Origin: Candidatus Altiarchaeota archaeon
Lineage (GTDB): Archaea > Altiarchaeota > Altiarchaeia > IMC4 > SCGC-AAA252-I15
Assembly (NCBI GenBank): GCA_043800705.1
Contig: JAZDMS010000024.1
Coordinates: forward strand, 14,546-78,545
DNA: 64,000 bases
Direction of reading: 5' to 3'
In this document: positions 4,805 to 64,000 of the stretch, one piece after another
Layout of the letters: every line of letters starts with the position of its first letter
Position numbering within the stretch: position 1 is the stretch's first letter
The notes under the pieces: model-generated
What the model saw: the letters and a program-made list of their open reading frames with translations, nothing else
Told to the model about the DNA's origin: nothing
Databases searched by the model: none
Translations under genes and position numbers: made by a program

Positions 4805-5503
4805 GTGGCCAAGAGTATAATCCTCAAACCAGGCGATATATGCAGGGTTGAACCCGACCGTATAGAAGACCGTAATGTGCTAAGGGTCGAGCTTACCGAA
4901 ACAGGCAGGAGCCTGAACGCACTAGCTCAGCTGAACCAGCAGGACCTCCCGCGCCAGATAGTCGAGCTCGGACCCGATGCTGTCAGGAATATCGGAAAGG
5001 TCGCGGGAGCCGGGATCGGGAAAAAACTCAATGCCGCAGCGAATGCAATAAGCCACGGACTGGGGGAGGATGAGCTACTTCTTATCCCAGGGCTCAAGGA
5101 GCTCGGAAACCTCAGGTTCACTGCGGGGGGGCACGTCCTCGGGCAGGAGCCGTATCCCGTGGAAAAACAGGCGAAACTGCAAAATGCCATCGAAAGATGC
5201 GTAGCGGAAAACCTACAGCAGAGGATCGAGGCCAGGTTGGAGCTGACAGGGGAAAAAAGGAGCAGGGAGATTCTAGAGGTCGGGATCCTAAAGAGAGGCG
5301 AAACCCTGAAGGTGGTCCCCTCCCCCCACACGGCAATCCGCCTCAGCACAGAAGAAGTCGGTGAGATCTTGGCTGACGTGAACGTCGAGCCCAGAACCTA
5401 CACATTGGATGAAAATCCCGACAGGCCGCTACCCGGGCAGATAAGGTCCGAACTTGCAAAGTACGGCATCGTTTTAGGGGCTAGAAAGATACTTGGCGCC
5501 TAA
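4805..5503 (+). CDS. hypothetical protein (real start possibly ATG 4710 with a frameshift at the A6 run 4785-4790)
   Basis: 232-aa ORF from GTG; the SD plus ATG at 4710 lie in another frame. Confidence 0.55.
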   Translation: MAKSIILKPGDICRVEPDRIEDRNVLRVELTETGRSLNALAQLNQQDLPRQIVELGPDAVRNIGKVAGAGIGKKLNAAANAISHGLGEDELLLIPGLKELGNLRFTAGGHVLGQEPYPVEKQAKLQNAIERCVAENLQQRIEARLELTGEKRSREILEVGILKRGETLKVVPSPHTAIRLSTEEVGEILADVNVEPRTYTLDENPDRPLPGQIRSELAKYGIVLGARKILGA

Positions 5504-61466: not shown

Positions 61467-62243
61467 GTGGACGAGCCTACGGACCGCGCACTCAAACTGC
61501 AGGGACTCAAAAGGGCCGAATATGACTCGATGAGCCAGGAGGGGAAGGCAGTCGTAGCATCAAGGAGCAGGAGGCTGACGGAGATCGCCGACATATCCTT
61601 GGCTGCGGAGCTTTTAAACACCCTCGCCGAAGCCGACGAAAGCAGCAAAGCTTACATCGCCGAAGCCCTCGAAGGCAAACACCCCGCCTTCAACGAGAAC
61701 ATAAGGCTCCTGATAGACGAATACCTCGACGCCATGGTGGACACGAGCATCAAGGACTACTACAAGATAAGATACGCCGGGAAAAATGGCATCTTGGCCG
61801 AATCCATCGATGGCGAAACCGCAGACATCAGGCCACCAAGAGAGGAGATATCGTCAGTTGCACAGTCGATCGACACTAAGATCGAAGCAGCCGCATCTGC
61901 CAAGCCTCCGGAGGCCAGCCAGCCCGCGGCAGACGCGGAACCGGCGACCGCTCCAATCCCTGAAGACCCGCTCATAAGAAGCAGGAAGATAGCCGTGATC
62001 CTGTCACGATGGGAGAAGCGCGACGTCGACAGAATCATGAAATCCGAATCCGACATCATATCAACCATCATGACAATCACGGACCAGTCGCAGGCAGACG
62101 GGATCACCGATGAGATCGTATGCAAAGCCGCCGAAACCATGATAAAAAACGGCACAAACGGGATACAATTCTACGCGGAAGCGATTTCTCCAGTCAATAG
62201 GGAGCTTCTCATTGAGACGGCCAAGGCATTCAAGCAACCGTAA
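61467..62243 (+). CDS. hypothetical protein
   Basis: 258-aa helical ORF with Ala/Pro linker; GTG start is weak. Confidence 0.6.
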   Translation: MDEPTDRALKLQGLKRAEYDSMSQEGKAVVASRSRRLTEIADISLAAELLNTLAEADESSKAYIAEALEGKHPAFNENIRLLIDEYLDAMVDTSIKDYYKIRYAGKNGILAESIDGETADIRPPREEISSVAQSIDTKIEAAASAKPPEASQPAADAEPATAPIPEDPLIRSRKIAVILSRWEKRDVDRIMKSESDIISTIMTITDQSQADGITDEIVCKAAETMIKNGTNGIQFYAEAISPVNRELLIETAKAFKQP

Positions 62244-62297
62244 GCTTTAAATAGACGAAACAAATAAGGATTTGGGCCGAATTCTAGGGTGAATTTG

Positions 62298-62933
62298 ATG
62301 TCTAAAGACGATAAACAGGAGCCGGAGTGCCTAATCGACCTCATCAAGAGACGCAGGACCTGCAGGTTCTTCAAACCGGTCTGCGAAGTCCCAGACAAGG
62401 ACATAAACCTGATATTGGAGGCCGCAAGATGGGCTCCGTCGGCCAGAAATCTCCAACCCATAGAATTCGTGATTGTGAGGGACCCGCAGGAGCTGAAGAA
62501 GCTGTCCGTATTCGCAAGACAGAACCAGCCGATGGAATCGTCAGTGTCCGTGATAGTCATAGGCGACCTCAAACGCGCCAAAGCCGTCGGAGACGTCTCC
62601 CCCCACGACGTGACCACCCACTTCAAGGGCATAAAGATGTTCATATACATGGACGCGGCAGCAGCCATACAGAACATGCTCCTCATGGCGGAAGCGCTCG
62701 GATACAACACCCTCTGGATAGCTTCCTTCGACGAGGACGGCCTGGAGGACTTCATGAAGCTGCCGCAGAGGTTCATACCCCTGTCCATCATCTGCGTCGG
62801 AAAAAAGTCCAAGGACCTGATCATCCCCCCCAAACGCAACCTCAATACGAGGGTGCACAAGGAGGTCTGGAGCCCCAAAGACCAGGACGAATCATACATC
62901 GGCTTCTCGAAGAAGATAAACCGCAGATACTGA
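62298..62933 (+). CDS. nitroreductase family protein
   Basis: I.RRRTCR.F, WAPSA.NLQP.EF, D..AA.QN.LL.A.ALG. Confidence 0.92.
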   Translation: MSKDDKQEPECLIDLIKRRRTCRFFKPVCEVPDKDINLILEAARWAPSARNLQPIEFVIVRDPQELKKLSVFARQNQPMESSVSVIVIGDLKRAKAVGDVSPHDVTTHFKGIKMFIYMDAAAAIQNMLLMAEALGYNTLWIASFDEDGLEDFMKLPQRFIPLSIICVGKKSKDLIIPPKRNLNTRVHKEVWSPKDQDESYIGFSKKINRRY

Positions 62934-62934
62934 G

Positions 62935-63041
62935 GACATGAGTCATGACACTGCCCTAGGATCCAAAGGATACTATAGACATAATCATGACATAAAGCGA
63001 TAAGTATTTAAATGGTCATGACAATATCATATTTGTCATGA
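62935..63041. promoter_or_regulatory. operator-like cluster of four TCATGACA sites around a TATA box
   Basis: TCATGACA at 62943, 62985 and 63016, inverted TGTCATGA at 63034; TTTAAA at 63007-63012. Confidence 0.7.
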
Positions 63042-63469
63042 AAGAAGTGGTTGCTGAGCATCAGAAGGAATTCGAGGAGCTGGTGGGCAGCCTTGCCCAT
63101 TCAACCAACCATATACAGGACCCGGTAGCCATCGGCCTAATGCTTTACTCCATCGCCGAAGAGCGCAAAAGCACCAACCTCATAGTCAAGGAACTCAACG
63201 CCAAAATAGACGGGCTCGTCAGCAAAATAGCGGAGTTCGAAAAACAGCCGGCAGCCGCCCCGGCCCAACCGGCGCCGAACATGTCAGACCGCGACCAGGA
63301 AGTCCTGAGCTTCGTAAGGACTACCGGAAAAGTCTCGGCGGAGCAGATGCAGAAGAAGTTCAAATACCGCGGAAAGAACGCGGCAAGCGCAAGGCTCTCG
63401 AAACTATTCCACGAAGGCATACTCCAGAAGGAGTACGCCGGAAGGAGGGTATACTACAAAGTCAGATAA
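63038..63469 (+). CDS. coiled-coil plus C-terminal winged helix-turn-helix DNA-binding protein
   Basis: Heptad coiled coil, Ala/Pro linker, then SDRDQEVLSFV...AASARLSKL..EG.L.K...GRRVYY. Confidence 0.85.
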   Translation: MKEVVAEHQKEFEELVGSLAHSTNHIQDPVAIGLMLYSIAEERKSTNLIVKELNAKIDGLVSKIAEFEKQPAAAPAQPAPNMSDRDQEVLSFVRTTGKVSAEQMQKKFKYRGKNAASARLSKLFHEGILQKEYAGRRVYYKVR

Positions 63470-63476
63470 CGCTTAT

Positions 63477-64000
63477 TACATCACCCCAACCACCCCCCAC
63501 CTCAGGCCTAAAAACCTGGGGTGGATCCAACTCACAAAAGAAAAAATAAATCACAATCACATGCTGCGAAAACTCGCAGCATGACTCACAAACCGCAGCT
63601 AAAAGCTGCGGTTCGCGATCACATCACCAAGTGATGTGGTAATTCAGCCAACCACCCCTCCACCCCGGGCCTAAAAACCCGGGGTGGAACCGACTCACAT
63701 CACTCCAAAAGTGTGGGAAAAACAAGCCATCCCTCCGCAATATAGGGTTGCGGAGGAATAACGATCACATCACCAAAGTGATGCGGTAGAGCCGATCCTC
63801 GGCTCGCGCGGAAGCGGGTGCCCCCCGAGGGGGCACGCACTGGCCGCCAAAAGAGGATAAAACACGATCACATGCCGCGAAAACTCGCAGCATGACTCAC
63901 AAACCGCAGCTAAAAGCTGCGGTTCGCGATCACATCACCAAGTGATGTGGTAATTCAGCCAACCACCCCTCCACCCCGGGCCTAAAAACCCGGGGTGGAA
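63477..64000. repeat. modular hairpin/TCAC-motif array (continues beyond window)
   Basis: 63556-63689 is repeated at 63867-64000 (311-nt offset, one mismatch seen); a third variant module at 63487-63524; many hairpins. Confidence 0.92.

Follow-up and report, generated by a model that had tools for sequence, protein, structure and literature searches.

A winged-helix regulator gene and its conserved 3' hairpin array in Altiarchaeales: a candidate two-part unit with a structured RNA

What is the role of a long series of non-coding hairpins that begins directly behind the stop codon of a small regulator gene? This question is raised by a locus of Candidatus Altiarchaeota archaeon (order Altiarchaeales) near the end of a contig, at the 3' edge of the 64,000-nt stretch of DNA analysed here (the window), in which base 64000 is the contig end. 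A gene for a 143-aa protein (63038-63469, + strand), recognised from the ORF list, a structure model and its homologues, is followed by at least 531 nt of TCAC-rich hairpin DNA running from the stop codon to the contig end; a preliminary description had given the same reading frame and more than 520 nt of non-coding DNA. That description regarded the protein as binding or spreading on the array, and the locus as acting in replication initiation, chromosome segregation or nucleoid organisation, an interpretation that our analysis supports in part. The window neighbours upstream of the regulator are a nitroreductase gene and the gene of a 258-aa protein without family. The array region itself contains only mechanical reading frames (46 and 42 aa, - strand). 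Coding potential 3' of the stop codon was rejected: open frames that follow it in some relatives are broken by indels between relatives, and they occur because the strand is poor in T and G.

The AF2 model of the protein (mean pLDDT 82.6) comprises a helical hairpin of two helices (residues 2-24 and 29-69), a low-confidence linker (residues 70-83) and a winged helix-turn-helix (wHTH; residues 84-142, pLDDT 86-95), in agreement with its earlier reading as a coiled-coil/wHTH protein. The best fold matches are to wHTH proteins of the ArsR/MarR/AspA type; the top ones, SqrR, MarR and HlyU, are weak (E 1.8e-3 to 1e-2), as is that to the centromere-binding wHTH protein AspA (E 3.8e-3, TM 0.38-0.57, below the tool's line). 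No Pfam model reached its cut-off (best 14-16 bits against 22-33), nor did NCBIfam HTH_metalloreg (19.4 against 55), and the protein did not match any Rep family, nuclease or transposase. Its recognition helix carries a Y-x-G-x-NAASAR motif that is invariant over the Altiarchaeota and DPANN homologues, the only archaea in which the searches made detected the family; homologues are present in 36 of 41 related genomes. The protein is likely a dimeric DNA binder and probably a small, self-repressing transcription factor. It shares the wHTH fold with autorepressors of the ArsR/SmtB, MarR and MecI types, and the palindromic boxes over its own promoter, a putative operator, recall them as well, although the dimerising helices are N-terminal here and a ligand or metal site is not evident.

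These boxes are copies of TCATGACA, and the four at the gene were correctly placed by the preliminary description: the distal box 1 (62943-62950), box 2 (62985-62992) and the promoter-proximal box 3 (63016-63023), found by motif scan on the + strand, and box 4 on the - strand (63034-63041; TGTCATGA on the + strand), which holds the ATG start codon. A fifth match lies at 62068, giving five in the window against 1.75 expected, a number reached by 2 of 100 shuffles. Box 3 is part of a conserved AGTCATGACnATATCATAA between the start codon and the TATA-like box TATTTAAA of the regulator promoter (63005-63012, + strand); AAGTATTTAAA around the TATA-like box is kept in relatives, and GTCATG recurs among them at the start codon. 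The number of upstream boxes differs from relative to relative, and at least one TCATGA occurs within 170 nt upstream in all 20 homologous loci (at -22 in 14 of them), in keeping with the operator cluster proposed earlier. In all 20, conserved TCATGA boxes between the TATA-like box and the ATG form a candidate operator, and box 3 is presumed to be the operator of autorepression. The mRNA is probably leaderless because the TATA-like box stands only about 26-33 nt before the ATG, as judged by the usual geometry of archaeal promoters.

The array, all of whose elements are given on the + strand, opens with module A (63458-63539; covariance model match, E 3e-7), in which an unpaired ACAUCACCCCAACCACCCC (63478-63496), beginning 9 nt past the stop codon, precedes a GC hairpin (63497-63524) and then AUCCAACUCACA. 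Two lineage-specific hairpins come next, CATGCTGCGA/TCGCAGCATG at 63560-63583 and one at 63586-63618 with the core AACCGCAGC/GCTGCGGTT at 63591-63613. Module B copy 1 (63615-63702; 82.7 bits, E 3.5e-20) consists of hairpin H1 (63618-63640; ATCACATCAC/GTGATGTGGT), an unpaired AAUUCAGCCAACCACCCC (63641-63658), the GC hairpin H2 (63659-63688) and then ACCGACUCACA; it is followed by a CUCACAUCACUCCAAAA...GUGUGGG element (63694-63717), and CACAUCACUCCA with an A-run behind it is conserved within the family. Hairpin H3 (63729-63759) has a conserved loop, (A)AUAUAGGG(UU), and a stem that covaries among relatives (CGCAA/UUGCG, CACAA/UUGUG, CGUAU/AUGCG). Behind it lie a degenerate second copy of H1 (63764-63787; ATCACATCAC/GTGATGCGGT), after which the unpaired motif is missing, and the lineage-specific hairpins GAGCCGA/TCGGCTC (63789-63805) and GTGCCCCC/GGGGGCAC (63818-63836). 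At 63857-64000 begins the next 311-nt unit, a 98% copy of 63546-63689 offset 311 nt downstream, because of which the array is read as a tandemly repeated unit; module B copy 2 within it (63926-64000; 73.3 bits) is truncated 3' by the contig end, and no other contig of the genome shares 15-mers with this tail at its own ends. All six inverted repeats listed previously are present (those beginning at 63560, 63591, 63659, 63729, 63789 and 63818), and to them are added the hairpin of module A and ATCACATCAC...GTGATGTG at both H1 positions.

The modules share a four-part plan. A hairpin on the 5' side, ATCACATC/GATGTGGT, is followed by an unpaired stretch that is invariant, G-free and C/A-rich and reads UUCAGCCAACCACC, or ACAUCACCCCAACCACC in the first module; then come a GC hairpin whose stem sequence varies by genome while its pairing is kept and, 3' of it, a CUCAC motif. 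Only a motif of 14-18 nt recurs, at spacings of 163 and 311 nt, and the hairpins otherwise differ in sequence. The + strand of the array is T-poor and C/A-rich (A165 C171 G118 T77), and as RNA the segment 63466-63860 is predicted to fold at -171.9 kcal/mol (z = -10.6), a stability equalled by none of 100 shuffles. Between 63470 and 64000, TCAC occurs 15 times on the + strand against 2.6 expected, a count reached in none of 1000 dinucleotide shuffles, and the enrichment persists when the duplicated part is left out (11 against 1.9 in 387 nt); ATCACATCAC occurs three times against 0.08 expected. GTGA occurs just three times in the same region, and GTGATGTG, which the preliminary description had taken for an inverse motif, is simply the 3' arm of the ATCACATCAC...GTGATGTG hairpin.

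A covariance model built from one module (module B) and applied at E <= 1e-3 to a phylum sample of 61 genomes gave 40 matches in 23 genomes, all confined to this one syntenic locus. Directly 3' of a regulator homologue and on the same strand lie 36 of the 40, while four are on contig-end fragments, three of them next to the gene usually found behind the array; the 2.0-Mb genome of the window holds three matches, all at the regulator locus. The reach of the model is limited: among the 38 genomes that it left without a match are 7 of the 20 of the window's own family and 14 of the 22 of its sister family, in which diverged modules can be recognised by eye. An exact search for the 14-mer TTCAGCCAACCACC gave 33 occurrences, spread over 23 of the 61 genomes and 29 of them at this locus, and none for the reversed control. 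Of 29 loci examined, 26 have their first CAACCACC-type motif beginning 15-59 nt beyond the point where the protein alignment ends; the other three are a locus with a 15-nt flank, one with a 252-nt flank and one diverged genome. Homologues are thus followed consistently by the same kind of array, a positive outcome of the check that the preliminary description had proposed, and by sequence the regulator and the array are a two-part unit conserved over the order Altiarchaeales.

This distribution bears on the idea of a selfish or defence-type repeat, whether a MITE/REP-like element, a CRISPR-like array or the RNA repeat of a type III toxin-antitoxin system. Such a repeat would fit the tandemly duplicated 311-nt unit and the fact that the assembly breaks at the array, as it would the contigs of 7 of 20 relatives, which also stop no more than 1.1 kb 3' of the gene. 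However, the modules occupy a single syntenic locus per genome, so that the model searches largely refute a dispersed generic repeat; the neighbouring protein is a wHTH protein rather than a nuclease or transposase; and, as stated earlier, repeat-spacer periodicity is absent, the only long repetition being one 144-nt duplication at 311 nt. We consider a repeat of this kind barely credible, and the array itself accounts for the recurrent assembly break in Altiarchaeales genomes.

The hairpins could instead form a passive 3' region that stabilises or terminates the transcript, or insulates convergent regulator and SRP receptor genes, and has no role in trans. The GC-rich stems suit such a region, and a convergent gene for an SRP54-type (FtsY-like) GTPase lies within 2.5 kb downstream in 13 of the 21 relatives' loci with enough flank, other genes taking its place in the remainder; in the window's genome the FtsY-type gene is not in the assembly, where the sole match is a 31%-identical SRP54-type gene. 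A further point in favour is confined to one family, where some loci have T-runs behind the last hairpin; no promoter, terminator or processing site could be defined. Passive hairpins nevertheless do not explain why the 14-nt unpaired stretch is invariant over two families with a protein identity of only about 45-50%, why the modules are multiplied to two to four per genome and evolve in concert, or why they are kept in 7 of 8 loci without the convergent gene. A purely passive role is in our opinion unlikely, although it deserves some weight.

The substitutions in the stems are informative about the level at which the array is maintained. Across 38 aligned modules, standard pairs fill 99.0% of 487 cells, against 79% with shuffled partners and 40-55% when the partners are slid; both sides change in 15 of 16 pairs, with a covariation score of 0.373 that falls to 0.03-0.04 for slid partners. 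The H2 stems, for example, read CCACCCCGGG, ACCGTCCTCC, CCCCCAGCC, CCGCCCCTAAC or CCACCCACAACC depending on the genome. An A·C mismatch on one strand corresponds to a G·U wobble on the other, and of the cells in the conserved helices, 450 are Watson-Crick, 32 are G·U as read on the gene strand, 3 are A·C and 2 are of other kinds, in an alignment that was fitted to the + strand model and therefore leans towards that strand. A symmetric scan of 72 distinct hairpins was less clear-cut on the strand, with only 23 G:T against 15 A:C, and about even numbers, roughly 12 against 14, without the conserved H1 wobble. Compensatory stem changes together with G·U pairs on the gene strand mark a structured RNA and are not what double-stranded iterons bound by a protein would show. 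We read these observations as pointing to a folded RNA of the + strand as the target of selection, probably the gene's own 3' UTR or sRNAs processed out of it.

The opposite strand might alternatively be the functional one, either as RNA, of which a 3' UTR belonging to the convergent gene would be an example, or as DNA; its conserved GG(A/G)GGUGGUUGG, beside the same hairpins, could then act as a two-layer G-quadruplex or a Shine-Dalgarno-like decoy. Four GG runs stand in the complement of the invariant core; certain lineage-specific hairpins can be lengthened only by taking A·C pairs of the + strand as G·U pairs of the - strand; and the extra A's within the motif of one relative (L016; CCAAAAACCACC) would be tolerable in a loop. 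The - strand also folds more stably in 26 of 26 arrays by minimum free energy, a comparison that we judged uninformative about the strand because the G/U-rich strand always folds better, although it may carry some signal. Against these points stands the count of G·U pairs in the conserved helices given above, and it is the regulator gene, rather than the convergent one, that the array accompanies. Moreover, a - strand promoter has no room where the convergent gene abuts the array, and a transcript of that strand would enter the regulator gene in antisense orientation and meet no T-run. We regard a functional - strand as improbable.

The same stems bear on the function originally proposed, in which the array is a DNA element offering double-stranded or extruded sites to the wHTH protein or another protein and serving as a centromere-like, nucleoid-organising or origin site. 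The conserved adjacency of gene and array, the iterated motifs, the likely dimeric DNA-binding protein and the presence of AspA among its weak fold matches are all compatible with this proposal, and a DNA-binding protein gene beside iterated motifs is likewise the layout of archaeal oriC (ORB beside orc1/cdc6), plasmid Rep/iteron and ParB/AspA loci. In these systems, however, the iterons have a fixed sequence, whereas the stems here covary, with wobble pairs that suit one strand only, and the array contains none of the TCATGACA boxes, the presumed sites of the protein, all five window matches lying at 62068-63041. The DPANN homologues retain their TCATGA boxes and lack an array of this kind. 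Cdc6_C gave one match per genome in five of five genomes, and cdc6/orc1 adjoined the locus in none of them: the gene is on a different contig in the window's genome, G016 and G024, and 192 and 185 kb away in G014 and G026, respectively. Neither a Rep gene with direct 17-22-bp iterons was found at the locus nor a ParA/SegA-type NTPase gene next to it, among the window neighbours and the relatives' downstream genes, and the array region (45.6% A+T) has no A+T-rich block. The distant cdc6, the missing ParA, the covarying stems and the box-free array together speak against the locus being an origin, a centromere or a nucleoid site to which the protein binds, and an array acting at the DNA level appears quite unlikely to us.

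We consider a wHTH autorepressor combined with a same-strand, modular non-coding RNA the best explanation of the locus, and a reasonably probable one. The factor would repress its own, probably leaderless, promoter through the TCATGA boxes that extend from the TATA box to the start codon. Directly 3' of the stop codon and on the same strand, a structured non-coding RNA of repeated modules would follow. It would most likely be transcribed together with the gene, as an extended 3' UTR from which sRNAs the size of one module may be processed. The modules would each display the unpaired stretch between their 5' hairpin and their stable GC hairpin, with CUCAC after the latter. The stretch would be the working part, either pairing with G-rich RNA or being bound by a protein, and its several copies would make the RNA a multivalent regulator or a sponge.

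A candidate target lies close at hand. In the three closest genera, pairing is possible between the stretch and nt +9 to +22 of the mRNA of the factor itself. Among the 8 closest loci, 7 have a predicted pairing of the 14-mer with ORF nt ~+9 to +22 at -13 to -16.5 kcal/mol, which ranks 0-8 among 180 control windows. Such self-pairing is absent from 15 more distant scorable loci, and 262 genomic sites, 24 of them near putative starts, pair as well as the site in the gene itself. In the window's genome, 11-mers complementary to the motif number about 16 outside the locus, no enrichment over the 10.5 expected, and the same holds for GGTGGTTGG, with 20 sites outside it for about 15 expected; complementarity did not yield a convincing set of trans targets. 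Two GGTGGTTGG sites are located at putative ribosome-binding sites (C14:902 and C16:5123). [quoted passage not shown] Its invariant G-free single strand would pair with leaderless mRNAs at their first codons, that of its own gene among them, or would titrate a C/A-specific RNA-binding protein.

If this were true, leaderless translation would be controlled, or a C/A-specific RNA-binding protein titrated, by the array RNA, and the wHTH factor and the RNA would constitute one feedback unit throughout an uncultivated archaeal order. Altiarchaeales are abundant, uncultivated archaea of the subsurface. In open-access main text, our literature search did not find a regulatory RNA in Altiarchaeales, and it returned nothing on this element from work on Altiarchaea non-coding RNA and metatranscriptomes, the motif, or archaeal sRNAs that mimic the anti-Shine-Dalgarno sequence. 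The array represents a sharply defined, order-wide candidate RNA family: its 14-nt unpaired element is invariant, its stems clearly covary, and its association with a conserved transcription factor is fixed. It may be an archaeal counterpart to the tandem sRNAs from bacterial 3' UTRs, and it provides a concrete target for metatranscriptome re-analysis and in-vitro tests.

Comparison with known RNAs gave no identity for the array. No Rfam family reached its gathering score in the loci of 14 relatives, and the best Rfam hit at the array itself had an E value of 0.24; SRP RNA and RNase P RNA were ruled out, both being located elsewhere in the genome, as was tRNA, of which the region holds none. 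Mimicry of the 16S rRNA 3' tail, that is, of the anti-Shine-Dalgarno sequence, was dropped as a conserved feature: one relative family has CAACCACCTCC, which includes the CACCTCC core of the 16S end in the window's genome (GGATCACCTCC), whereas the window's family has CCACCCC in its place and the array here lacks CACCTCC; the best local alignment of the array with the 16S tail was reached by 54 of 500 shuffles. Among bacterial sRNAs, CsrB and RsmZ, with GGA motifs, and CrcZ, with CA-rich motifs, act as protein sponges. They resemble the array in carrying many copies of a short unpaired motif between or on hairpins of one transcript, and differ from it in the motif and in their binding protein, for which no candidate emerged here.

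In design, the closest analogues are ccaF1-CcsR1-4 and Yfr1. The former, the 'cuckoo' RNA of Rhodobacter sphaeroides and relatives, is described as a set of sRNAs cut from the 3' UTR of a gene, at a locus defined by its conserved gene-RNA neighbourhood (PMC8034643). Common to both loci is a small protein gene followed on the same strand by tandem homologous hairpins with a conserved C-rich motif; however, the bacterial RNAs are processed by RNase E, carry their motif CCUCCUCCC in the loops of two hairpins and accompany CcaF1, a DUF1127 RNA binder, whereas the present locus is archaeal, agrees in DNA layout, has its motif unpaired between hairpins and encodes a wHTH protein (PMC8034643). The Cuckoo/CcsR covariance model of Rfam had no match at the array or at the 14 relatives' loci, and Yfr1 had no sequence or model match at the array. 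According to the Yfr1 account, this cyanobacterial RNA is a single free-standing gene with verified mRNA targets, in which an ultraconserved, unpaired, C/A-rich seed, ACUCCUCACAC, lies between two stem-loops (PMC2796815). Its sequence is different and the likeness is one of design only, but that design, an ultraconserved unpaired motif flanked by two stem-loops, is the one found in module B, where UUCAGCCAACCACC stands between two hairpins (PMC2796815).

The 531 nt between the stop codon of the 143-aa regulator gene (63038-63469, + strand) and base 64000 of the window, where the contig ends, contain no credible ORF and form a C/A-rich, T-poor array (A165 C171 G118 T77) built as a chain of perfect hairpins. 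The window spans positions 14546-78545 of contig C22. We regard the array as a new candidate family of structured RNAs, laid out in the manner of tandem sRNAs derived from 3' UTRs and linked to a putative winged-helix (wHTH) autoregulator, conserved and unclassified. As RNA, the segment 63466-63860 folds at -171.9 kcal/mol (z = -10.6). TCAC occurs 15 times in the array against 2.6 expected, a count reached by 0 of 1000 shuffles, and GTGA occurs three times; the preliminary description was correct in every particular of what it observed, namely the ORF, the TCATGACA boxes, the hairpin chain and the TCAC enrichment. The stretch 63857-64000 is a 98% copy of 63546-63689, 311 nt downstream, and because this repeat runs into the contig end, we take the array to be a tandem unit truncated by the assembly. 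The array evidently breaks short-read assemblies, since 7 of 20 relatives have a contig end no more than 1.1 kb downstream of the regulator gene and a scaffold gap of Ns lies inside the array of the relative L005 (G006:C2), about 80-90 nt past the stop codon. Two genes upstream of the regulator, a 258-aa ORF (61467-62243, + strand) gave no match in Pfam at a threshold of E <= 0.1.

Downstream of regulator homologues, the same array elements recur. Module A, (C)TTATTACATCACCCCAACCACCCC plus a GC hairpin, stands about 10 nt or less past the regulator stop codon; module B, present in one or more copies further on, consists of ATCACATC-loop-GATGTGGT (hairpin H1), then AATTCAGCCAACCACC(C/T)CC, then a GC hairpin, and a CTCA(C/T) motif comes after the GC hairpin of each module. 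The window's family also has CACATCACTCCA followed by an A-run, plus a hairpin whose loop, AATATAGGGTT, is conserved. That such an array consistently follows homologues of the gene is borne out: in 26 of 29 loci, a CAACCACC-type motif starts 15-59 nt past the point where the protein alignment stops, the other three loci being two with very short flanks and one from a diverged genome. A covariance model, R1, built on 12 copies of module B from the window's family, gave 40 matches in 23 of the 61 genomes of a phylum sample (E <= 1e-3) and none in 12 genomes of the class's two other families; by gene coordinates, 36 of the 40 lie directly downstream of a regulator homologue on the same strand, and the remaining four are on contig-end fragments, three of them adjoining the gene that usually follows the array. 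In the window's own 2.0-Mb genome, R1 has three matches, all in this array, and this confinement, together with the placement of the matches across the phylum, rejects a generic dispersed repeat. Exact copies of the 14-mer TTCAGCCAACCACC number 33, in 23 of the 61 genomes (reversed control, 0), and 29 of them are at the regulator/array locus. In one genus, TTCAGCCAACCACC is also present once or twice at another locus (L038, G037:C33:11365-11450; L043, G044:C29:501-514), where it is part of a repeated GTTTGAAACCAGTTTCAGCCAACCACCCTTCACCC unit that has neither a regulator gene in its vicinity nor an adjoining GC hairpin; the motif may be used there in another RNA. A single exact 14-mer also lies between divergent genes in a same-genus genome (L039, G001:C79:51110-51123), where about 0.01 is expected per genome; this copy may be a further site of action or a relic that arose by chance.

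When 38 modules from 23 sources were aligned to R1, 99.0% of 487 helix cells held standard pairs (79% with shuffled partners, 40-55% with slid partners), 15 of 16 pairs showed changes on both sides, and the covariation score was 0.373 compared with 0.03-0.04 for slid partners. Module copies within one genome share one 3'-hairpin stem, which differs between genomes, and the 14-nt stretch before this hairpin is invariant. The array is probably a plus-strand RNA: it begins at the stop codon, with no space for a terminator, its orientation is fixed, the wobble counts favour the gene strand, and T-runs come after the last hairpin in some loci. In the module alignment, which was fitted to the plus-strand model, the helix cells comprise 450 Watson-Crick pairs, 32 G·U on the gene strand, 3 A·C and 2 others, and the second pair of H1 alternates among U·G (17), U-A (6) and C-G (5); a symmetric scan of 72 distinct hairpins gave a weaker bias, 23 G:T vs 15 A:C. 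The less likely minus-strand RNA would be G/U-rich, and in all 26 arrays compared that strand has the more stable fold.

A regulator homologue is present in 36 of 41 related genomes. The source names of the homologues are Candidatus Altiarchaeota or Altiarchaeales, more distant ones being from Micrarchaeota and one from an Iainarchaeum MAG. The protein matched no Pfam or NCBIfam model at its cut-off; its best family matches are weak ArsR, Sta1 and Lrs14 wHTH hits over residues 81-142. An AlphaFold2 model from a 42-sequence alignment (mean pLDDT 82.6, pTM 0.43) predicts one long helix at residues 2-24 and another at 29-69, then a disordered linker and, at 84-142, a winged helix, and Foldseek returned for it generic wHTH proteins only (SqrR, MarR, HlyU, AspA, MecI and Zalpha; E 1.8e-3 to 1e-2). 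The recognition-helix motif Y-x-G-x-N-A-A-S-A-R is invariant in 42 of 42 aligned sequences, and regulators carrying the invariant 14-nt stretch downstream are 45-60% identical to one another.

Upstream of the regulator ORF, TCATGACA boxes lie at 62943, 62985 and 63016 (+ strand) and at 63034 (- strand), the last including the ATG; the whole window holds five against 1.75 expected. All 20 homologous loci first fetched have at least one TCATGA in the 170 nt upstream of the homologue, at -22 in 14 of them, within a conserved AAGTATTTAAA-n-AGTCATGACnATATCATAA-n-GTCATG string. Archaeal promoter geometry, our basis for reading this promoter, would place the TATA box about 26-33 nt before the ATG, so that the mRNA is presumably leaderless, with operator boxes spanning the TATA box to the start codon in the usual autorepression layout. 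Upstream of the Iainarchaeum (DPANN) homologue (L036:2300-2480; 36% identity) lie the same TCATGA boxes, and downstream of it there are no CAACCACC modules; the factor-operator pair is therefore older than the RNA array. Across the own genome, A/T-rich 5-mers dominate the 20-nt stretches that precede the first ATG in 1771 long ORFs (TAATT 7.7-fold, ATTAA 6.4-fold) and Shine-Dalgarno words are only 1.5-2.7-fold enriched, which suggests, with crude start calls, that many mRNAs are leaderless.

The origin or centromere-like function first proposed for the locus is not supported: cdc6/orc1, a single gene in each of five genomes, lies on another contig in three and 185-192 kb off in two, no partition ATPase gene adjoins the locus, and the array is without any TCATGACA box. 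CRISPR periodicity is absent. Rfam gave nothing at the array beyond chance-level rows (E <= 10) and no family at gathering score in 14 relatives' loci; no tRNA was found at the array, and SRP RNA and RNase P RNA are located elsewhere, on contigs C25 and C37, respectively. A mimic of the 16S tail (anti-Shine-Dalgarno) fits one family (CAACCACCTCC) and not the window's own, where 54 of 500 shuffles attain the observed alignment score. The upstream neighbour of the regulator gene is a nitroreductase gene, and a convergent SRP54-type GTPase (FtsY-like) gene lies downstream in 13 of the 21 relatives' loci with enough flank; modules are kept in 7 of the 8 loci without it. In the own genome, no close orthologue of this FtsY-type gene is assembled, the only match being a 31%-identical SRP54-type gene on contig C20, and the missing gene probably lies just past the contig end.

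Each unit places a long, G-free, unpaired conserved stretch between hairpins, and such units follow one another in tandem after a small protein gene. In 7 of the 8 closest loci, which represent three genera, the regulator's own ORF offers at nt ~+9 to +22 a site with which the 14-mer can pair (-13 to -16.5 kcal/mol; ranking 0-8 among 180 control windows). These loci are related and hence not independent observations, and the amino acids encoded at the site differ among them. On a leaderless regulator mRNA, such pairing would block initiation. None of the 15 scored loci that are more distant shows it, and 262 sites in the own genome pair with the 14-mer as well as the own-ORF site does. The exact complement of the invariant core, GGTGGTTGG, forms the putative ribosome-binding region 3-9 nt before the ATG of two own-genome genes (C14:~892-916 and C16:~5119-5134, both - strand), which are possible targets; the product of one is truncated and looks secreted, and that of the other is a membrane protein of 499 aa whose C-terminal end is HTH-like. 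Overall counts of this complement in the genome are not above chance.

Searches of open-access text yielded no publication that describes this element or a regulatory RNA of any kind from Altiarchaeota. We propose that the array acts through its unpaired stretch, which would either base-pair with other RNA or bind protein multivalently, because two known systems each share part of the array's design. In Yfr1, the seed is an ultraconserved unpaired motif flanked by a stem-loop on either side (PMC2796815), matching the conserved unpaired motif flanked by hairpins; in ccaF1-CcsR1-4, the 3' UTR of a small protein gene is cut into tandem sRNAs with a C-rich motif, to which the gene's product binds (PMC8034643), matching the tandem units behind a small protein gene.
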